Assembly: GCA_949283145.1 (NCBI GenBank)
Contig: CASDRL010000011.1
Location: forward strand, 1,142 to 65,141
Length of the DNA stretch: 64,000 bases
DNA from: an uncultured Clostridia bacterium
GTDB taxonomy: Bacteria; Bacillota; Clostridia; Christensenellales; CAG-917
Reading direction: 5' to 3'
Below the pieces are notes generated by a model that was given only the letters and a program-made list of their open reading frames with translations, was not told the DNA's origin and did no database searches. Each line of letters begins with the position of its first letter. The stretch's first letter is position 1. Shown one piece after another: positions 5,672 to 62,957 of this stretch. Both the position numbers and the translations under genes were made by a program.

Positions 5672-5731
5672 CGAGAGAAGGCTCCGGAAGGCACGGATCA
5701 CAAGTTTAGAGGACTAATTGCGGCGTTTCGG

Positions 5732-5759
5732 TTGACTATGCCGGCGGAAGATTTATAAT
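5732..5759 (+). promoter_or_regulatory. Sigma-70-type promoter upstream of thrS
   Basis: TTGACT (5732-5737), 16-nt spacer, TATAAT (5754-5759). Confidence 0.5.
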
Positions 5760-5815
5760 AGTCCTTGCACAAAAAAGTACGGCCGTTCGTAGGGCCGATT
5801 GCAAAGGAGCTTTTT

Positions 5816-7753
5816 ATGATCATTACTCTCAAAGACGGCAGCAAAATGCAGCTCGAAGGCGCCATGACCGCCCTCGAAGTCGCAAAACACATCAGCGAAG
5901 GTCTCGCGCGTGCGGCGCTCGTTGCAAAGGCGGACGGAAAGTTCGTGTCCATGAACGAGGTCATTGACGGCGACTGCACCTTCGAAGTGTTCACCTTCAA
6001 GGACGAGGAGGGCAGACTTGCCTATCGTCACACCTGCTCGCACATCCTCGCGCAGGCGGTGAAGAACATCTATCCCACCGTGCAGCTTGCCATAGGCCCC
6101 GCGGTCAAGGACGGGTTCTATTACGATTTCGAGTTCAAGACCCCCATCACGCAGGCGGATTTCGACAAGATCGAAGCGGAGATGAAGAGCATCATCAAGG
6201 CGGATATGCCCATCGTGCGCAGCACCATGAGCCGCAAGGACGCCGAAAAGCTCATCAAAAAGATGAAGCAGAGCTACAAGATGGAGCTGCTTGCGGACAT
6301 CCCCGAGGGAGAGGAGATCTCCTTCTACACTCAGGGCGATTTCACCGATCTTTGCGCGGGTCCCCATCTCGCGTCCACGGGCAAGGTGAAGTGTTTCAAA
6401 CTCACCTCTCTCACGGGCGCTTATTGGCGCGGCAATGAGAAAAATAAGATGCTGACGCGCATATACGGCACCGCGTTCGACAAAAAGTCGGACATGGACG
6501 AGTATCTCCAGAAGCTCGAAGAGGCGAAAAAACGCGACCACAACAAGCTCGGCAGAGAGCTCGGCATCTTCATGACGGATGAGAACATCGGTCAGGGTCT
6601 CCCGCTCATCATGCCCAAGGGCGCGCGCATCATCCAGATCATGCAGCGCTTCGTCGAGGACGAGGAGCAGCGCCGCGGCTATCTGCTCACCAAGACCCCC
6701 ATAATGTCCAAGAACAACCTGTTCATCACCTCCGGACATTGGGATCACTATAAGGACAAGATGTTCTACATCGGCGAAGAGGACGTGGATGACGAGATCC
6801 TCTGCCTCCGTCCCATGACTTGTCCCTTCCAGTTCACCATCTACAAGAACGGGCTCAAGTCCTACCGCGACCTGCCCATCCGTTACGCCGAGACCGCCAT
6901 CGAGTTCCGCAAAGAGGCGAGCGGCGAGATGCACGGTCTCACCCGCATCCGTCAGTTCACCCTCGCAGACGGGCACATCGTCTGCACCCCCGAGCAGCTC
7001 GAGAGCGAGTTCGCGGGAGCGGTGGACCTCATCAAATTCATGCTCAAGACCTTCGACCTCGAGGGCGACGTCACCTACCGTTTCTCCCGTTGGGATCCCA
7101 AGAACGCGGACAAGTACGTCGGCAGCGCGGCGGATTGGGAGCGCAGCGAAGGCGCGATGAAGACCATCCTGGAAGACCTCGGCATCGAATATACCGAAGC
7201 GTGGGGCGAGGCGGCTTTCTACGGGCCCAAGCTCGATGTGCAGGGCACCAACGTCCACGGCAAGGAGGACACTCTCTTCACCGTCCAGCTCGACTTTGCG
7301 CTCGCGGAGCGTTTCGATATGATGTACATCGACGAGAACGGCGAAAAGGCGCGTCCGCTCATCATCCACCGCAGCTCCATCGGCTGCTATGAGCGCACCC
7401 TCGCAATGCTCATCGAGAAGTACAACGGTGCTTTCCCGATGTGGCTCGCGCCCGAACAGGTCAGAGTGCTTTCTCTCACCGACCGCACAGCGGACAACGC
7501 CAAGAAAGTCGCATCCGAGCTTACGGCGGCGGGACTGCGCGCCGAAGCGGACGTCCGCAGTGAAAAGCTAGGCAAAAAGATCCGCGAAGCGCAGCTCGAG
7601 AAAGTACCCTACGTCCTCGTCATCGGCGACAAAGAAGCCGAAGACGGCGTCGTCGCCGTCCGTCACCGCTCCGAAGGCGACCTCGGCACCATGACCGTCG
7701 CCGAGTTTATTGCCAAGGCTGCGGAGGAGGTTGCTTCCAAACTCCGCAAATAG
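5816..7753 (+). CDS. thrS: Threonine--tRNA ligase
   Basis: Trimmed to ATG 5816 (AAGGAG upstream). 645 aa with a TGS-like N-terminus, a class II core and an anticodon-binding C-terminus typical of ThrRS. Confidence 0.95.
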   Translation: MIITLKDGSKMQLEGAMTALEVAKHISEGLARAALVAKADGKFVSMNEVIDGDCTFEVFTFKDEEGRLAYRHTCSHILAQAVKNIYPTVQLAIGPAVKDGFYYDFEFKTPITQADFDKIEAEMKSIIKADMPIVRSTMSRKDAEKLIKKMKQSYKMELLADIPEGEEISFYTQGDFTDLCAGPHLASTGKVKCFKLTSLTGAYWRGNEKNKMLTRIYGTAFDKKSDMDEYLQKLEEAKKRDHNKLGRELGIFMTDENIGQGLPLIMPKGARIIQIMQRFVEDEEQRRGYLLTKTPIMSKNNLFITSGHWDHYKDKMFYIGEEDVDDEILCLRPMTCPFQFTIYKNGLKSYRDLPIRYAETAIEFRKEASGEMHGLTRIRQFTLADGHIVCTPEQLESEFAGAVDLIKFMLKTFDLEGDVTYRFSRWDPKNADKYVGSAADWERSEGAMKTILEDLGIEYTEAWGEAAFYGPKLDVQGTNVHGKEDTLFTVQLDFALAERFDMMYIDENGEKARPLIIHRSSIGCYERTLAMLIEKYNGAFPMWLAPEQVRVLSLTDRTADNAKKVASELTAAGLRAEADVRSEKLGKKIREAQLEKVPYVLVIGDKEAEDGVVAVRHRSEGDLGTMTVAEFIAKAAEEVASKLRK

Positions 7754-7879
7754 CTGAGGGCACTATTCGGCGAATAACTGCGTCAAAGGCACCCTTTCCT
7801 GCGGGTTACGTACGCCTAAGTACGCGCCCCTTGAAAAGGGTGCCTTTTCCTTGTTCTTCATCCGAATATTGCCCTCAGC
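7753..7879. repeat. Nested hairpin element H1, copy 1 (abuts the thrS stop codon)
   Basis: Outer stem gctgagggcactattcgg/ccgaatattgccctcagc pairs at 17 of 18 positions. Inner stem aaaggcaccctttc/gaaaagggtgcctttt (imperfect, one bulged a). Loop core gttacgtacgcctaagtacgcgcc at 7805-7828. Confidence 0.7.
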
Positions 7880-7981
7880 CCCGAGCGCGCTATTTTGCGT
7901 GATACTGCGTCAAAACCCCCGTCGTGGATGCTCACGTACGTCATTGTACGCTCCGGCGTCGCAATTCGCGCTAAACTGCAA

Positions 7982-8007: not shown

Positions 8008-8167
8008 CATTTGCTGGCGCGCGATTGCTCCTTTTCCCCACAAAGCGTGCTCGCTATGACCCCACCGAAAATTCTTTCGGCGGGGATCCCACACTGCGCC
8101 ACTTTGCGGGGACCCCGATGGAGGGGGCTTTTCCTTGTCTGACGCTAAAATATCGCCGTCAGCGAAT

Positions 8168-8673
8168 GGGGCGCTTTCGCGTTCTGCATCCAAATATCGC
8201 GCTCAGCGAATTAGCGTTCGTGCGGGCGTCTCCGAGAACGACGGCTCTCTTTCGGAGACGGAACAACGCGCCGCTCAGCCAAACTTGCACAGCGGGCGCT
8301 TGCGCCTGCTCTTGCAAGTCGCGGCGCGCTATCTGAGTGCCGAGCGCTGGCGTAACATTAAGTAGGCACGGGCGTCGTGCGCGAGCGCCGAATTCCTCCG
8401 CCCGTGCCGGGTTTTCAGTGAGTTCTGTTCGCCGCTCGATTATGTTAGTGCGAGACACAAACTTTTTTTCAAAAGGCGGAAAGAAAGTTCCGCATTGTAG
8501 GAGGAGGGAAGCCCTGTCGGACACGGGGGAGGAAAGCCCGAATGGGGCTCCCCGCAAAATGCATGCATTTTGTGGGGTCCCCGGGTTGGAGGGGGAAATC
8601 AAGATAACCCGCGAGACGAACAGCTCATTCGAAGCGTGTTTGAACACGACGTACAGCTCGATAGAACGTCCCC
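8168..8673. repeat. Collinear non-coding module, copy 1 (conserved blocks d-e-f-g-h)
   Basis: Blocks at 8168-8195, 8267-8329, 8357-8372, 8525-8542 and 8613-8673 recur in the same order at 18638-19287. No credible ORF. Confidence 0.7.
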
Positions 8674-8812
8674 CGAGTACGTCGAAAACTCCGGGTGTGT
8701 GTTGCTTATATTCGGGCATAACTCCGGGACAACGGGGCGTGGCAGGAAAACTCCGGGATAACGGGGACGGGGTAAAGCAGGGGGACCCATCCTTGATGGG
8801 GTTTGGGTGCGC

Positions 8813-8857
8813 AAATGTTCAATGGCAGGCACATTCTGCCTGCCATTGAACATTTTT
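8813..8857 (+). terminator. 19-bp perfect hairpin with T-run (terminator-like) inside the ORF-free island
   Basis: aaatgttcaatggcaggca / tgcctgccattgaacattt with 5-nt loop cattc, followed by ttttt. Confidence 0.45.
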
Positions 8858-8978
8858 GCCCCGTCCCCATTTGTTTCGTACCCCCGTCCCGCTCTTGCCC
8901 CAATGCGTTCCTGTTTAAGGCGTGTTGGATGGCAGTCCGTTAAAATCGTCTGCGGGCACACCTCTGCGGCTTTGTGTA

Positions 8979-9007
8979 TTGCAAAATTTTTCCGTTGGGG
9001 GTAGAAT
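8979..9007 (+). promoter_or_regulatory. Sigma-70-type promoter for the 9029 membrane-protein gene
   Basis: TTGCAA (8979-8984), 17-nt spacer, TAGAAT (9002-9007). Confidence 0.5.
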
Positions 9008-9028
9008 GGACGGGAGAGAGGTGGCTTT

Positions 9029-9793
9029 ATGATCTTCACGGGCGAACACTATTATCTCGGGCTCATACAGGCGGCGCTTGCGGTCTTTTATGTGCTGTTC
9101 GGCGTGTTCGTCGCGGGGAGGAGCAGGGTGCTCGACCGCGTGGGAGCGTGGCTCATCGGCGCCTATCTTCTGATGTACAAGTTCAACGAATACGGTCCGT
9201 TCAGAGCCGTGCCCGTGGACCTTTCCGCGGTGTCCTACTTTCTCTTCGGCGTGGCGGCGTTCGTCCCCTTCCGTCCGTTGAAAGCGGCGGGGTCTTTCAG
9301 CGCGATGCTGAGCGGTTCGATCTATTTCTTCACCATGATCCTTTACCCCGAGATGCATGTGGAAAATCTGCTGAACGACCGCTGGTTCCTGCTCACCATG
9401 GCGATGGTCAACCACAACATCATGTTCTTCGGCGGGATGCTGGTCTGCGCGGAGTGCCGGTTCGGGCGCACGGACTATGTCTGGATGCTGGGGTGGATGG
9501 CGTTCTATCTCGCCTATTTTCAGCTTGTCACGGTGGGATACGGCATCACGGAGGGGGTGACGACCATCGGGGAGATCGTGGACGGCACCCTTGTCGCCGA
9601 GGTGCTGGGAGTGCCGCTCACCGCGGCGTATTACGCCGTCTATTACATTGTCGTGATACTCGCGCTGGCGCTCATATTTGTGCTGTTCAGGTGCATAAAC
9701 TCGGTGTTTATGCGGCGGAAAGACAGGAATAAACCGCGCTTTCTGTCATATGCCGATATGCGACCCGCTTGGGAGAGCCTGTTTCGGTGTTGA
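9029..9793 (+). CDS. Hypothetical multi-pass integral membrane protein
   Basis: 254 aa with about 7 hydrophobic segments. GGGAGAGAGG lies upstream of the ATG. Confidence 0.65.
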   Translation: MIFTGEHYYLGLIQAALAVFYVLFGVFVAGRSRVLDRVGAWLIGAYLLMYKFNEYGPFRAVPVDLSAVSYFLFGVAAFVPFRPLKAAGSFSAMLSGSIYFFTMILYPEMHVENLLNDRWFLLTMAMVNHNIMFFGGMLVCAECRFGRTDYVWMLGWMAFYLAYFQLVTVGYGITEGVTTIGEIVDGTLVAEVLGVPLTAAYYAVYYIVVILALALIFVLFRCINSVFMRRKDRNKPRFLSYADMRPAWESLFRC

Positions 9794-17476: not shown

Positions 17477-17632
17477 CTGCTCCGACCGTGTTTGATGTTC
17501 ATATGATATTTTAATTAAGTTAAAGCCGCGTTAAAACAATTTAACTTCTTTTTCCGCTTTTTTTAAGCACAAAATCCGTCGGATGAGATGATTTTGCACG
17601 GGCGCTGTGTTATTATATTAAAAAGGTATTTT

Positions 17633-18556
17633 ATGGCTAAAAGAGAATTTCCTTCAAAACAAGAGATAGAAGCGGCGGTCAAAGCCGTCATCGACCGCGA
17701 CGGGACGGAACGCAAGCTCCTCATCGAGCGCTCCCTCACCCGTTACGGTTATTCCGCGGCGGAGCTCAAAGACCGCAGCTGCGAGTCGCTCAGCACCCGC
17801 CTCAAAAGCCTCACCGGCGTCGTCCTCAACGAGATGCTCTCCGCGGGCACCCTCGTCACCACCGAGGACGGCAGGCTCGCCCCGCCCGCGCCCGTCGTCG
17901 AACCCAAGACCGGGCTCACCCGCACCCAGCGCCGCAGAGCGCAGCGCAAACGCGCCGCCGAACGCGCCAACAAACAGCCCAAATATCCCGACACCCCCCT
18001 CGGCAAAGCCCTCGAAGGCGCGGACAAAAAGTTTCAGGAGTATAAGGCGGGCAAGCTCAGCAAGGATAAATATCTCGCCGCTCTCCGCCGTGCGCTCACG
18101 CAAGCCATCTCCGAGGCGGGCGGCGAGTTCTTCGAGGAGCTCAGCATGAAGGTGCTCCTCGCCGTCTACGGCGACACCGTCGTCAGCAACGAGCTCACCG
18201 CGGGTCCCGACGACAACGGCATCGACGGCAAGATACACCTGAAAGACCCCGCAGGGTTCAAAGAAACCGTCTTTTTCCAGTCCAAGACCAAGCTCAACGA
18301 GCGCGCGTTCGTCTCCGTCAAAGTGGTGCGCGAGTTCCTCGGCGTCATGACCGCCTGGGGCGCCACCAAGGGCATCCTCATCACCAACTCCCGCTTCCAC
18401 CGCGACACCAAGACCTTCGCCGCCAAACGCCCAAACCTCCTCCTCATCGACAACACCGTCCTTCTCGACATGATGTTCGCCCACAGCGTAGGCGTGAAGC
18501 AGGTGGAGGGTGGTGTGTGGCATGCGGATGATGATCTCTTCCTCAACCTGACCTGA
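17633..18556 (+). CDS. Mrr-like restriction endonuclease domain protein
   Basis: Trimmed to ATG 17633. The C-terminal approx 130 aa have a PD-(D/E)xK-like pattern (GIDGKI...VFFQSK) and Mrr_cat-like layout. Upstream of that are an N-terminal approx 90-aa domain and a K/R-rich linker. Confidence 0.7.
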   Translation: MAKREFPSKQEIEAAVKAVIDRDGTERKLLIERSLTRYGYSAAELKDRSCESLSTRLKSLTGVVLNEMLSAGTLVTTEDGRLAPPAPVVEPKTGLTRTQRRRAQRKRAAERANKQPKYPDTPLGKALEGADKKFQEYKAGKLSKDKYLAALRRALTQAISEAGGEFFEELSMKVLLAVYGDTVVSNELTAGPDDNGIDGKIHLKDPAGFKETVFFQSKTKLNERAFVSVKVVREFLGVMTAWGATKGILITNSRFHRDTKTFAAKRPNLLLIDNTVLLDMMFAHSVGVKQVEGGVWHADDDLFLNLT

Positions 18557-18676
18557 CGGCGTCATTTGGCGCACAACTTTGTCAGCGCCCTTTTTTCGGC
18601 TCGTTACGTACGCCTGAGTACGCGCCTCGCCGAAAAAGGGGCGCTTTCGCGTTCTGCATCCAAATGACGCCGTCAG
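18553..18676. repeat. Nested hairpin element H1, copy 2 (abuts the stop codon of the Mrr-like gene)
   Basis: Outer stem ctgacggcgtcatttgg/ccaaatgacgccgtcag (17 bp, perfect). Inner stem agcgcccttttttcggc/gccgaaaaaggggcgct. Loop core gttacgtacgcctgagtacgcgcc at 18603-18626. Confidence 0.7.
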
Positions 18677-19287
18677 GCAATGCACAGCTTGATAGAGTGC
18701 TGTTTGAACTCGATTTGCCCATTTTTCGGAGACGGAATAACGAAAACCACGAGCGTGACGTCCTTAGACCCGACGCGCACTCATTCGGGGTGGAGCCGCT
18801 CACAAACGCGCACTCGTTCGGAGCGTCTTTGAGCACGATGTCTCTCTTTCGAAGACGGTTTTACGCGCCGCTCAGCCAAACTTGCACAGCGGGCGCTTGC
18901 GCCCGCTCTTGCAAGTCGCGGCGCGCCCCGCGACCTCGCAAGCTAGACGGGAAATTAAGTAGACACGGGCTCGGTGCGCGTCGAGTCGCCCTCCTCGCCC
19001 CGCGAGGGGATTTCAACCGGTACCGGCATCCACTTGATTATGTGGGTGCGATTACCAAAATTTTGGTAAAGTTCAAAAGTAAGTCCCGCATTTTGGGAGA
19101 CGAGAACTCTATTCCGAGTGGGGGAGGAAAGCCCGAAGGGAAGGAGGGGGAATTCTTACTCACCCCCGAGACGAACAGCTTGATAGAGTGTCTCCGATCA
19201 CGCCGTACCCTCCGAGCGAGCACCCGTGAGACGAACAGCCTATTTGAAGCGTGCCTGAACACGATGAACAGCTTGAAAGAACGTCCC
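18638..19287. repeat. Collinear non-coding module, copy 2
   Basis: Blocks at 18638-18665, 18864-18926, 18954-18969, 19120-19137 and 19228-19287 match copy 1 in order. e-f and f-g spacing is conserved (90/90 and 168/166 nt). Confidence 0.7.
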
Positions 19288-19442
19288 GGATCCGACGCAC
19301 CATTTGAGCGGGCGTCATAATACACGAAGCCATTGTTTCCTGCGCGGTGTCTCTCTTGACATGAACGGCGCTTTATATTACTATAATTGCGTCGGCAATG
19401 CGTTTTGCCGCATAGAATATAGCTTATTATGTGGAGAATATA

Positions 19443-62032: not shown

Positions 62033-62048
62033 TACCAATCGTTCAAAG

Positions 62049-62316
62049 TGTTGGCGCGGGACGGGACTTGCTCCGCGCTCGCTATGCTAGTGGACGCATA
62101 CGGCTTGGGGATAACATCGTTCTTGCATTATGGTGCGTTGCTCGCGCTATCACGCCGGGGCGGGAAACTTGCCCCGCAAAGTGTCCTCATTTCATTCCGG
62201 CGCTTTGCGGGGACCCCGATCATTATTAAGATACATCACTTCATGAATGTAAGGCTTGATCATATTTCCGCCCGTTCAAGCCCCGTCCCTCGACAAATTA
62301 AATGCTCCGCTATGAC
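62049..62316 (-). repeat. tRNA-Leu 3'-end-like unit A (with 99-nt apical cassette)
   Basis: 62054-62165 equals 62639-62750 except one base (62087 c vs 62672 a). 62265-62316 is identical to 62778-62829. The tRNA-like tail is mutated (ttggcgcggg instead of tggtgcgcggg). Confidence 0.7.
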
Positions 62317-62453
62317 GATAATGTCACGCAAAATTCCCGCGGAGCGAAAATGAGTGAAAGAGCGATAGTTGCGGAGCGGAGCGGAGAAACGAGGAGCGAA
62401 TGAACGGCTTGCATTTTCGTGACGCGAAGAGGAGCCGCAGGCTCATACGCAAA

Positions 62454-62475
62454 CACCCCGCAATTCTGCGGGGTG
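62454..62475 (-). terminator. Hairpin following unit C
   Basis: Minus strand caccccgcagaattgcggggtg followed by tttg. Confidence 0.4.
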
Positions 62476-62501
62476 TTGCTAATGGCGCCTTGCGGCGACG
62501 A

Positions 62502-62598
62502 TGGTGCGCGGGACGAGACTTGTAAGGAGCGAAGCGACGGAATAGCGATCGTTGCATGAAGTGCCGATCGCGTCAGCCACAGGGAGAAAGTCCCGTCT
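62502..62598 (-). repeat. tRNA-Leu 3'-end-like unit C
   Basis: Minus strand ends ...acaagtctcgtcccgcgcacca. Its 5' GACGGGAC can pair with the 3' GUCUCGUC; one pair is a G-U wobble only in the minus-sense RNA. Confidence 0.55.
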
Positions 62599-62607
62599 GC
62601 GAAAAAG

Positions 62608-62635
62608 AAAGTCCCGTGACACTTCACGGGACTTT
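62608..62635 (-). terminator. Intrinsic terminator immediately after unit B
   Basis: Minus strand aaagtcccgtgaagtgtcacgggacttt followed by cttttt. Confidence 0.65.
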
Positions 62636-62814
62636 GGTGCGCGGGACGGGACTTGCTCCGCGCTCGCTATGATAGTGGACGCATACGGCTTGGGGATAAC
62701 ATCGTTCTTGCATTATGGTGCGTTGCTCGCGCTATCACGCCGGGGCGGGACAACAGCCAATCCGTAGGCTGTTGTCTTTTCCGCCCGTTCAAGCCCCGTC
62801 CCTCGACAAATTAA
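62635..62814 (-). repeat. tRNA-Leu 3'-end-like unit B (with 27-nt apical hairpin)
   Basis: Minus strand ends ...gcaagtcccgtcccgcgcacca, identical over the last 21 nt to the tRNA-Leu 3' end. The 5' GGGACGGG can pair with the 3' CCCGTCCC. Confidence 0.7.
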
Positions 62815-62850
62815 ATGCTCCGCTATGACATAGTCGTCATAGCGGAGCAT
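62815..62850 (-). terminator. Intrinsic terminator of tRNA-Leu
   Basis: 15-bp stem atgctccgctatgac/gtcatagcggagcat, followed by tttaattt on the minus strand. Confidence 0.7.
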
Positions 62851-62851
62851 T

Positions 62852-62939
62852 TGGTGCGCGGGACGGGACTTGAACCCACATGAACGTATTGTTCACTAGA
62901 ACCTGAATCTAGCGCGTCTGCCAATTTCGCCACCCACGC
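62852..62939 (-). tRNA. tRNA-Leu (anticodon CAG), class II with long variable arm, CCA encoded
   Basis: Hand-folded. Acceptor GCGTGGG/CCCGCGC with one G-U pair; anticodon stem CTAGA/TCTAG; loop TTCAGGT. Long variable arm, T-loop TTCAAGT, discriminator A plus CCA. Confidence 0.9.
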
Positions 62940-62957
62940 ACGGGTGATCGCTTGTTG

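Follow-up and report, generated by a model that had tools for sequence, protein, structure and literature searches.

The window, the whole 64,000-nucleotide stretch of DNA from an uncultured Clostridia bacterium that was analysed, carries 45 of its 51 genes on the + strand. Two of its intergenic islands, one after thrS and one after an Mrr-like gene (17588-18556), hold non-coding modules, which we call A and B; they have the same orientation and are separated by 10.6 kb. A copy is built as a mosaic of one to three palindromic P elements, hairpin units of ~33 nt, a core of ~325 nt and further units, arranged as follows.

7753..7880, no strand assigned: P element copy, a ~125-nt imperfect palindrome with terminal inverted repeats, starting at the thrS stop codon
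8165..8211, no strand assigned: right half of a P element, containing block d (8168-8195); repeat family D4
8222..8545, + strand: core of module A, subtype 1 (nhmmer 309.8 against the family profile; RNA fold z = -2.6)
8227-8236 / 8251-8260, + strand: helix H1 of module A (core fold)
8267-8328, + strand: hairpin e (H2) of module A (core fold)
8357-8372, + strand: block f of module A
8393-8411 / 8517-8534, + strand: long-range helix of module A, which uses block g (8525-8542) (pairing and covariation)
8447-8452 / 8491-8496, + strand: helix P6 of module A (core fold)
8546..8606, + strand: small G/C-clamped palindrome in the loop after block g (insertion in the alignment; hairpin fold)
8607..8673, + strand: tail of module A, two ~33-nt hairpin units that make up block h (84.8% identical to 19222-19287)
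8740..8880, no strand assigned: Q element, a second palindromic repeat family, hairpin followed by a T-run (inverted repeat I9)
18552..18677, no strand assigned: P element copy with block d at 18638-18665, overlapping the stop codon of the Mrr-like gene
18678..18818, + strand: 5' extension of module B, a solo copy of the first ~20 nt of the core (18724-18742) followed by ~33-nt units
18819..19140, + strand: core of module B, subtype 2 (nhmmer 373.3; RNA fold z = -3.2)
18824-18833 / 18848-18857, + strand: helix H1 of module B (core fold)
18864-18925, + strand: hairpin e of module B (core fold)
18954-18969, + strand: block f of module B
18991-19009 / 19112-19129, + strand: long-range helix of module B, which uses block g (19120-19137) (core fold)
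19045-19050 / 19087-19092, + strand: helix P6 of module B (core fold)
19162..19287, + strand: tail of module B, ~33-nt hairpin units, with block h at 19222-19287 (unit pattern match at 19243-19266)

An earlier, sequence-only reading had described a module present twice, without a credible ORF, in which five blocks (d to h) keep their order and spacing within essentially unrelated sequence. Most of the blocks were found as described. Block d is identical at 28 of 28 positions (8168-8195 and 18638-18665), block g at 18 of 18 (8525-8542 and 19120-19137), and block f lies at 8357-8372 and 18954-18969. Block e falls inside a stretch with 92.9% identity over 85 nt (8245-8329 versus 18842-18926, E = 2.5e-29); its hairpin has the CTTG (CUUG) loop that was claimed, and the single difference within it, T in A (8307) and C in B (18904), makes the + strand pair G.U in A and G-C in B. 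The e-f spacing is the same in both copies and the f-g spacing is 168 versus 166 nt, again as reported. The grouping of the blocks required revision. Block d belongs not to the module but to the right end of the separate ~125-nt P element. The similarity at block h was real (8607-8672 versus 19222-19287, 84.8% over 66 nt), but it consists of two ~33-nt units of a kind that also precedes the core. The intervening sequence is related after all, with 72.8% identity over 323 nt between the cores (8226-8545 versus 18823-19140), and the inference drawn from unrelated spacers does not hold for spacers that are ~73% identical and belong to two subtypes. The module is also not confined to two places, but is part of a multi-copy family.

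The P element at 7753..7880 has self-complementary arms (7753-7770 and 7862-7879) and forms a single long hairpin (-67.5 kcal/mol, z = -8.3), of which the inner hairpin and T-run at 7824-7849 were detected by a terminator scan. The P element at 18552..18677, 71% identical to it, has perfect 18-nt terminal inverted repeats (18552-18569 and 18660-18677) and a fold of -78.7 kcal/mol (z = -9.2). The right half at 8165..8211 is 88% identical to positions 84-125 of this second copy, and P copies 84-90% identical to it stand upstream of modules in L002, L003 and L016 (L-numbers are labels of module-bearing loci outside the window). The P palindromes look like the terminator of the upstream gene. In the Q element, the 26-nt arms of inverted repeat I9 (8806-8831 and 8837-8862) are 88% complementary and the fold reaches -53.1 kcal/mol (z = -8.6); Q copies adjoin modules in L020, L021, L002 and L003 as well. 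With one to three P elements, units in varying numbers, cores in tandem and inserts in some copies, the build is modular in the way of BOX and BIME repeats. The palindrome at 8546..8606 is one of these inserts: L026b has a different insert of like kind at the same site, and the other 14 of the 16 aligned copies have none. Residues 1-54 of this insert are 100% identical to residues 54-1 of L007, and residues 16-61 to residues 1-46 of L013.

The ~33-nt units both precede and trail the core, and their pattern has three matches in the window, all beside modules, versus 0 expected. A CRISPR array was rejected for these units, which are directly adjacent without spacers and occur in the window at the two modules only. 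The solo element of module B (18724-18742) is 94.7% identical to 8250-8268, and the 5' extension to which it belongs is also found upstream of the core in L007, L011, L014 and L016 (77-86% identity). In the tail of module B, 19162-19180 matches 8607-8625, and 19175-19190 matches 18684-18699.

Modules A and B are copies of a dispersed, multi-copy, non-coding repeat family that was, as far as searched, previously undescribed. An exact-word scan of 185,579 species genomes with a 23-mer from hairpin e gave seven stretches in three Clostridia MAGs, five of them in one fragmented MAG and mainly at contig ends. A 20-mer was found in 11 stretches of human-gut contigs, bringing the exact-word scans of the two collections to 18 further stretches in total. 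The sequence-only reading had named a lack of further homologues as counting against it, and further copies were found. In addition, 105 clusters of spurious ORFs overlap copies, all from ENA metagenomes and mostly on contigs of ~1 kb. The family has so far been found only in a lineage of uncultured, high-GC human-gut Clostridia. All copies lie outside real genes, so that the family is dispersed, intergenic and multi-copy like BOX, BIME and NIME-type repeats. Two copies occur within 1-12 kb of one another at L002, L006, L009, L018, L021, L022 and L026, and truncation, tandem arrangement or nesting affects many copies. Copies in other genomes are nearer to A and to B (85-91% identity) than A and B are to one another (73%); the two represent two subtypes of the family.

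ORFs do run across both modules, a 218-aa ORF on the + strand of module B (18664-19320), called as a gene in the public assembly, and a 186-aa ORF on the - strand of module A (8159-8719). The earlier statement that there is no credible ORF was nevertheless borne out, as no frame is open in all of 12 copies and most copies have stops in every frame. No Pfam domain is present in the 218-aa ORF, whose apparent homologues are without exception ORFs over other copies. A protein-coding gene or pseudogene was rejected because no frame is kept open across copies.

The copies have a characteristic position. Sixteen of 18 lie 110-650 nt downstream of a co-oriented gene, and annotated loci likewise place them downstream of lacZ, gyrA, a peptidase gene and a GAPDH gene; in L007 and L011 the element begins at the stop codon that ends the preceding gene. 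Co-orientation is far more frequent with the upstream than with the downstream gene, and four of the ten copies with a callable downstream gene sit between convergent genes. Because nearly all window genes are on the + strand, co-orientation with genes is confounded with replication direction. A simple sigma-70-type scan detected no promoter upstream of either window module and picked up only those of the downstream genes. No transposase gene was found, either within the window or among the annotated genes flanking seven loci, and the window and annotated flanks had no gene for a Y1/HUH transposase, TnpB or IscB; nor did the annotated flanks contain an IscB, TnpB or reverse-transcriptase gene beside any copy examined. 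We found neither a mobilising gene nor a target-site duplication, and the junctions showed no conserved target word of four or five nucleotides. GAGACG-like words flank the core, but they differ within a copy and therefore do not represent a target-site duplication.

Comparison of related loci shows gains or losses of copies between genomes, and empty sites exist in related genomes. In L020, where thrS is 87% identical, the spacer downstream of thrS is a plain 216 nt with an ordinary terminator and without a module, and the module is located upstream of thrS instead. Conversely, a module follows gyrA in L009 and L021 and is absent from that site in the window. At an orthologous site the module is 76% identical versus 91% for the neighbouring genes. 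L026 and L003 are 93-95% identical in both flanks, and between the final base of hairpin e and the tail they carry different subtypes; L007 and L011 differ from the same switch point. The L007/L011 switch may be an assembly chimera, because L007 ends inside the repeat; both flanks are assembled for the L026/L003 swap, which is free of this problem. A subtype swap of the segment after hairpin e at two orthologous loci thus indicates gene conversion. These comparisons show that recombination has exchanged the segment downstream of hairpin e among copies, the homology arms being the invariant hairpin and the tail units. A decaying repeat shaped by patchy gene conversion, the alternative kept in the sequence-only reading, was therefore partly right: the repeat is dispersed, and conversion is visible at two orthologous loci.

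The core of ~325-330 nt appears to fold as RNA, read in the direction of the gene, into a conserved shape. In the modelled fold, which was derived from the same alignment that was used to count its pairs, the 51 core pairs are 98.5% paired across the alignment, versus 37-57% in slid controls. Compensatory changes on both sides were observed at six pairs (22 cells), few of them independent events because most covariation separates the two subtypes, and none of 500 shuffles reached the observed count of both-side-changed cells or the covariation score. An unguided search for covarying helices on the mixed-subtype alignment was dominated by noise. The core pairs include 88 G·U cells versus 5 A·C cells, which identifies the + strand as the folding strand. 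The structured RNA proposed in the sequence-only reading fits both the covariation and this asymmetry, whereas the protein-binding DNA sites that it offered as an alternative do not, since double-stranded sites do not explain helices that form on one strand only.

Hairpin e stacks three tiers of 8, 7 and 8 bp below a CUUG loop (-38.4 kcal/mol, z = -3.7), and compensatory changes in L020, L021 and L024 replace G-C by U-A, A-U by C-G and C-G by U-A. In L021b its two distal tiers have shrunk to a short stem-loop on the basal stem and the remaining core is kept. Block f and the loops and bulges of hairpin e vary little or not at all among copies that share ~73% identity elsewhere. The long-range helix is formed by a UCCUC stretch and the GGAGGA of block g and switches between subtypes from C-G to U-A, from G-C to C-G and among G.U, G-C and A-U; P6 closes a variable hairpin within the core. 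Another helix, P4, occurs in four covarying variants; it would run across the long-range helix, so that a pseudoknot is possible in the modelled core; the P4 partner is ambiguous, with the CGAGC motif present three times. A helix between block f and the 3' part of block g was rejected, as it comprises four invariant pairs only and is broken in L021a. Block g was also rejected as a ribosome-binding site: an ATG follows it in copy A only, and its GGAGG pairs with the upstream CCUCC in all copies. The core is asymmetric, ~325 nt long and without terminal inverted repeats, and in size and architecture differs from BOX- and BIME-type repeats, which typically measure under 200 bp and are palindromic or bounded by inverted repeats; here only P and Q are palindromic. 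Of the features that define a MITE (terminal inverted repeats, a target-site duplication and an IS with matching ends), perfect 18-nt inverted ends are present in P and absent from the core.

A search of the whole window with Rfam 15 (4227 models) at the gathering score returned a tRNA-Leu only. For both islands, on which an Rfam scan had been proposed, there was no family match; at E values up to 5 only sub-threshold chance matches appeared, the best with 27 bits versus a 137-bit cut-off. Ten further module loci gave an unrelated FMN riboswitch only at the gathering score. A subtype-3 copy also exists among the family members, and its search against Rfam at E up to 1 yielded nothing relevant. 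Block g resembles the GGAGGAAAGUCC stretch of RNase P RNA; RNase P was rejected since no RNase P model scores. Blocks e and d had 0 matches in an exact-word scan of viral contigs, and blastn of both islands against phage and plasmid collections gave no match, so that neither these searches nor Rfam identified the blocks as fragments of a known IS or prophage, the origin that the earlier reading had said would speak against it. Four core words were not present in the first 200 supplementary files of a catalogue of structured-RNA candidates from the human microbiome (PMC8040213), and a literature search found no account of such an element.

We give about an even chance to the reading in which an abundant mosaic repeat of intergenic regions, specific to the lineage, BOX/BIME-like and co-transcribed as a structured 3' extension, is represented here by copies of two subtypes, A and B. 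The element would have no promoter of its own and would be transcribed by read-on from the upstream gene, and any action in cis would be exerted as a structured 3' extension. By analogy with proposals for BOX, REP/BIME and ERIC repeats, such an extension might serve as a 3'-exonuclease barrier or insulator. Spread would occur via a function encoded elsewhere in the genome or via recombination, and the near-invariance of hairpin e would reflect a structural or protein-recognition constraint together with concerted evolution. In size and intricacy the core surpasses BOX, REP and ERIC repeats, with its long-range helix, possible pseudoknot, invariant loop sequences and lack of terminal inverted repeats; an exonuclease barrier would not need such intricacy.

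A family of genes for a trans-acting non-coding RNA, new, large, structured and with a protein partner, is a possibility that we hold to be rather unlikely. Hairpin e and block f would then be protein or ligand contacts, the subtypes functional variants such as specificity cassettes, and the flanking palindromes insulating terminators. The fold is indeed complex for a repeat and its long-range helix is backed by compensatory changes; the four covarying variants of P4, which would cross that helix as a pseudoknot, the (near) invariance of block f and of the hairpin e loops and bulges, and the terminator-like palindromes upstream (P) and often downstream (Q) point the same way. Shortening or replacement of the hairpin apex on a preserved basal stem is also seen in variable domains of known RNAs. 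Against this stand the lack of a detected promoter upstream of either window copy, the ambiguous P4 partner, the divergence of the module relative to its neighbouring genes, and a very high copy number with many truncated, tandem or nested copies that is typical of selfish repeats. The more specific proposal, in which the core represents a new RNA class, large (~330 nt), pseudoknotted and working with a protein not yet seen, seems less likely still; it might be the scaffold or guide RNA of a mobile-element enzyme, with hairpin e as the protein handle, the swapped segment as the specificity cassette, and copies that hitch-hike on housekeeping read-through.

We regard as doubtful a non-autonomous transposon that moves as single-stranded DNA, like IS200/IS605 derivatives or REPIN/RAYT, in which the hairpins would be top-strand signals for an HUH tyrosine transposase encoded elsewhere and the orientation bias would come from replication. 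Pairing on one strand with many G.T wobbles is expected of folded single-stranded DNA too, the core has no terminal inverted repeats, long REPIN-like palindromes (P) are always alongside, presence varies among relatives, and the strand distribution of the window genes (45 of 51 on +) satisfies co-orientation with replication equally well. However, neither the window nor the annotated flanks of the seven loci contain a transposase gene, the junctions share no target tetra- or pentanucleotide, and a covarying helix with strands >100 nt apart has no known role in HUH transposition. The upstream-gene bias and the four of ten convergent sites also point to the transcript 3' end rather than the fork. 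Membership in a known class of self-splicing or retro-mobile RNAs, be it group II introns lacking an ORF, group I introns or IStrons, or guide RNAs of the HEARO/omega RNA kind, would suit a co-oriented, multi-copy, structured RNA of 300-450 nt positioned after terminator-like palindromes, but is very improbable. Rfam 15 gave no match to an intron, ribozyme or HEARO (islands at E up to 5, the subtype-3 copy at E up to 1, and the ten loci), and an ORF-less class C group II intron was rejected because neither Intron_gpII nor group-II-D1D4 matched even at E up to 5. Domain V of group II introns has ~34 nt; hairpin e is unlike it in geometry by eye, with 37 nt by count and a bulge 8 bp from the loop, and no domain V-like hairpin was seen by eye near the 3' end of the core. 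No IscB, TnpB or reverse-transcriptase gene adjoins the copies in the annotated flanks. The direct orientation of A and B at a distance of 10.6 kb and the ORF annotated over B are what one would expect if, in this genome alone, a segment had simply been duplicated locally or a protein-coding gene were decaying. We give these explanations hardly any credence, given dozens of copies at unrelated loci of other genomes, the greater similarity of A and B to foreign copies than to each other, the lack of a conserved frame and an ORF without a Pfam domain.

If the BOX/BIME-like reading is true, this is, per the searches made, the first described mosaic repeat system of that kind in uncultured high-GC human-gut Clostridia. 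The repeat breaks metagenome assemblies, with many copies at contig ends, may produce chimeric joins between loci, and yields more than 100 spurious 'hypothetical protein' clusters in public databases. It also offers an example of concerted evolution in which a 62-nt invariant hairpin would be the crossover point for swaps of ~300-nt segments among dispersed copies. Should the core instead be a new RNA class, it would add a large structured RNA that has a long-range helix and may contain a pseudoknot, and the two coexisting subtypes would provide a handle for testing what the variable segment recognizes.

Among known systems, class C (IIC) group II introns are multi-copy structured RNAs whose insertion sites lie just behind terminator hairpins, with the intron oriented like the upstream gene. 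Their marks are a domain V carrying the catalytic triad, GUGYG at the 5' end and AY at the 3' end, and a fold of six domains. The repeat shares the position after terminator-like palindromes, the co-orientation and the copy number, but lacks an Rfam group II match, so that domain V and domains I-IV were undetected, and its core is shorter than the ~400 nt of a minimal class C intron. HEARO/omega RNA of IscB, ROOL, GOLLD and OLE likewise span several hundred nt with an intricate fold backed by covariation, and HEARO occurs in many copies per genome, stand-alone ORF-less copies included. Unlike these RNAs, the repeat matches no Rfam model, has no nuclease or phage context and no detected promoter, and exists in many truncated and nested copies. 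BIMEs (the enterobacterial REP mosaics), REPIN/RAYT and the Neisseria NIME/Correia elements are also extragenic mosaics of palindromes and short motifs. They are usually located at gene 3' ends, with termination and mRNA protection as proposed roles. The P element, with its ~125-nt hairpin and inverted ends, resembles a REPIN or MITE, and P, Q and the small G/C-clamped palindromes fit the BIME/REPIN class; the non-palindromic core does not, and no RAYT or IS partner was identified here. BOX of Streptococcus pneumoniae (boxA-(boxB)n-boxC), RUP and SPRITE are abundant non-coding intergenic modules with variable tandem internal units, as is the family described here, although there is no sequence similarity. 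BOX elements are modular, enriched downstream of coding sequences and a source of spurious ORFs; they are transcribed as extensions of neighbouring operons and have been proposed to impede 3'-5' exonucleases or alter mRNA stability (PMC3049150). Predicted stable RNA folds, enrichment downstream of coding sequences and spurious ORFs from long copies are common to both. The present repeat is distinguished by its asymmetric ~325-nt core with a long-range helix, its 62-nt nearly invariant hairpin, its two to three exchangeable subtypes, its host lineage of high-GC uncultured Clostridia, and a co-orientation with the upstream gene (16 of 18 copies) that is much stronger than the ~61% reported for BOX.

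The two islands were read and compared with each other. All five conserved blocks (d to h) lie where the sequence-only reading had placed them, with the spacing it described, in copy A downstream of thrS and in copy B downstream of an Mrr-like gene. Block d is identical at 28 of 28 positions, block e lies inside an 85-nt match (92.9% identity, E = 2.5e-29) and is predicted to fold into a three-tier stem with a CUUG loop (hairpin e), and blocks f and g are found in both copies, g at 18/18. Block h is indeed similar (84.8% over 66 nt) but consists of two ~33-nt hairpin units rather than one block. The observation is real with two corrections: the sequence between the blocks had been called unrelated, but the whole core aligns at 72.8% (8226-8545 with 18823-19140), and the blocks are not one entity, block d forming the right-hand end of a distinct palindrome of ~125 nt. 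The interpretation put on them was partly supported.

Modules A and B are members of a family, not a lone pair. Among 185,579 species with one genome each, a 23-mer of hairpin e was found in seven stretches from three Clostridia MAGs, five of the seven from one MAG and mostly at contig ends. A 20-mer matched 11 stretches of human-gut metagenome, and a 218-aa ORF across copy B, used as a probe, returned 105 ORF clusters, all from ENA assemblies, none with a Pfam domain and most on contigs of ~1 kb, the size expected when a repeat breaks assemblies. Loci fetched from these matches carried further copies, some of them in tandem pairs and some truncated; the count for the window is exactly two. 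The matches elsewhere refute a private duplication. A decaying gene is likewise refuted, since none of the reading frames stays open through all of 12 copies and the homologous ORFs are other copies of the repeat. The family is undescribed. More than 100 public 'hypothetical proteins' of 120-340 aa (P0001, at 18664-19320, and P0002-P0105) are merely open frames over repeat copies; such entries are database contaminants and could be flagged.

The window, which overlaps ENA assembly ERZ16268056, is an ordinary stretch of core chromosome carrying genes such as one for a ClpB-type AAA+ ATPase, thrS, infC-rpmI-rplT, gyrBA, dnaB and recO, with 45 of its 51 called genes on the + strand and no transposase, integrase or reverse transcriptase among them. 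Rfam searches of the window and of further module loci disfavour known introns, ribozymes and guide RNAs; at gathering score the whole window returned tRNA only. T-box and L20 leaders are common in Firmicutes, and it was unexpected that this search found neither a T-box upstream of thrS (5700-5816) nor an L20 leader upstream of infC-rpmI-rplT. An FMN riboswitch (531-649, 109 bits) in L009, a locus fetched for its module, is unrelated to the repeat.

A typical copy follows the upstream gene's stop codon with one to three copies of a palindrome P, a variable number of ~33-nt units, a core of ~325 nt, further units and often a second palindrome, Q. P is predicted to form a ~60-bp hairpin (-68 to -79 kcal/mol, z about -9) with a terminator-like inner stem and a T-run. 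Within the window it occurs only in the two module-bearing islands (7753-7880 and 18552-18677), where it begins at or overlaps the stop codons of thrS and the Mrr-like gene. Q, often present on one or both sides of a copy, is a long hairpin whose 26-nt arms are 88% complementary; a T-run comes after it, and GGGGACGGGG / CCCCGTCCCC bracket the element. In L020, a locus from a relative, a module lies between two same-orientation Q copies. A third, small palindrome family reads CCCCGCAAA...TTTGCGGGG then ACCCCGA/GGAGGGGG.

Window 8740-8880; L020 6069-6201 and 6756-6866; L021 5976-6046; L002 4521-4667: copies of palindrome Q
Window 8075-8130, 8546-8606 and 62165-62220: small palindromes of the third family

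The small G/C-clamped palindromes stand alone and, in some copies, are inserted at a fixed core loop, as at 8546-8606 in copy A and, with another one, in L026b. An 18-nt word is shared by 8102-8119 and 62203-62220, and the palindrome in copy A matches contig ends of L007 and L013 at 100% over 46-54 nt. The part of the core beyond hairpin e separates subtype 1 (copy A, L003, L004, L009b and L011) from subtype 2 (copy B and most remaining copies). In a third variant (three copies) the apex of hairpin e is replaced by ~230 nt of other conserved sequence, and in two of the three block f is replaced too.

The window also contains a tRNA gene with a repetitive flank:

Window 62852-62939, - strand: tRNA-Leu(CAG)

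Upstream, its 3' end (GGTGCGCGGGACGGGACTTG-like) recurs three more times, at 62048, 62500 and 62633. A 112-nt direct repeat is 99% identical between 62054-62165 and 62639-62750, and 62300-62326 / 62826-62852 form a 27-nt inverted repeat. The region 62040-62940 resembles a stack of attachment-site scars left by repeated integration into this tRNA gene; between 60528 and 63027 no gene was called as an integrase.

Sixteen full cores (alignment A4) were analyzed with RNAalifold and pair counts. Five helices comprising 51 pairs are 98.5% paired, the fold having been derived from the alignment on which the pairs were counted. Both-side changes occur in 6 pairs (22 cells), reflecting few independent events because they are mostly a split between two subtypes. 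None of 500 shuffles matched the observed both-side-change cells or covariation score, and sliding the partners by 1-3 columns lowered pairing to 37-57%. Hairpin e is invariant in close copies and carries compensatory changes (G-C to U-A, A-U to C-G, C-G to U-A) in the distant L020, L021a and L024; in L021b its distal two tiers have shrunk to a short stem-loop atop the basal stem. The most informative helix is a long-range one. In subtype 1 it joins UCCUCC-G-CCCGUG to CACGGG-GGAGGA; subtype 2 has UCCUC-G-CCCCGC opposite GUGGGG-GAGGA, and three pairs are changed on both sides between the two. Block g is a strand of this helix and was therefore rejected as a ribosome-binding site. One more helix, P4, is tentative: C(G/A)AGC, together with three bases, follows hairpin e and would pair with GCU(C/U)G, which precedes a conserved AUUAUG, and the helix has four complementary variants (AAC/GUU, CGG/CCG, UAG/CUG and GCU/AGU). 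P4 would cross the long-range helix in a pseudoknot; its partner is ambiguous because the CGAGC word is present three times. The 51 pairs include 88 G.U cells vs 5 A.C cells, which places the helices on the + strand alone. This excludes double-stranded protein-binding sites as the explanation and points to RNA or, less likely, folded single-stranded DNA.

A same-orientation gene lies 110-650 nt upstream in 16 of 18 copies, and annotated loci concur, with copies after lacZ, gyrA, a peptidase gene and a GAPDH gene. In L007 and L011 the upstream gene's stop codon marks the start of the element; we take this gene, from its C-terminus, to resemble serS. Six downstream genes share the orientation of the copy and four converge on it, which ties the repeat to the 3' end of a gene; co-orientation with replication and with transcription are inseparable here because nearly all window genes lie on one strand. 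No promoter-like site showed up ahead of A or B in a simple sigma-70-type scan, whose only hits are promoters of the downstream genes.

Copies are gained or lost between relatives. In L020 (thrS 87% identical) thrS is followed by an unremarkable 216-nt spacer bearing an ordinary terminator (8988-9204), in whose place P seems to stand in the window, and the module lies upstream of thrS instead. A module follows gyrA in L009 and L021, with none there in the window. The orthologous loci L026 and L003 (flanks 93-95% identical, both sides assembled) are identical up to the last base of hairpin e, differ in subtype for 300-390 nt and resume identity at the tail CCCGCGAGACGAACAG; L007 and L011 switch at the same point, although the L007 contig ends inside the repeat. 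The switch is gene conversion among dispersed copies, for which the invariant hairpin and the tail serve as homology arms, and part of the extreme conservation of block e is therefore due to concerted evolution. Identity at the orthologous gyrA site is 76% for the module vs 91% for the genes, so strong purifying selection does not act on the element as a whole.

A single-stranded-DNA transposon of the IS200/IS605 or REPIN-like kind is a less likely reading, which lacks a transposase and leaves the long-range helix unexplained. The element is most likely an abundant, lineage-specific, mosaic intergenic repeat, and among known kinds it comes nearest to the BOX/BIME/NIME class. The modular BOX elements contain tandem internal units in variable number, occur preferentially downstream of coding sequences, spawn spurious ORFs, are transcribed as extensions of neighbouring operons and have been proposed to impede 3'-5' exonucleases (PMC3049150). 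The core would be transcribed by read-on from the upstream gene and, if it acts at all, may do so in cis as a structured 3' extension. The core differs from the BOX/BIME/NIME class in its size, its asymmetry, its long-range helix and its exchangeable subtypes, and in view of these features it may instead act in trans as an RNA that works with a protein partner.
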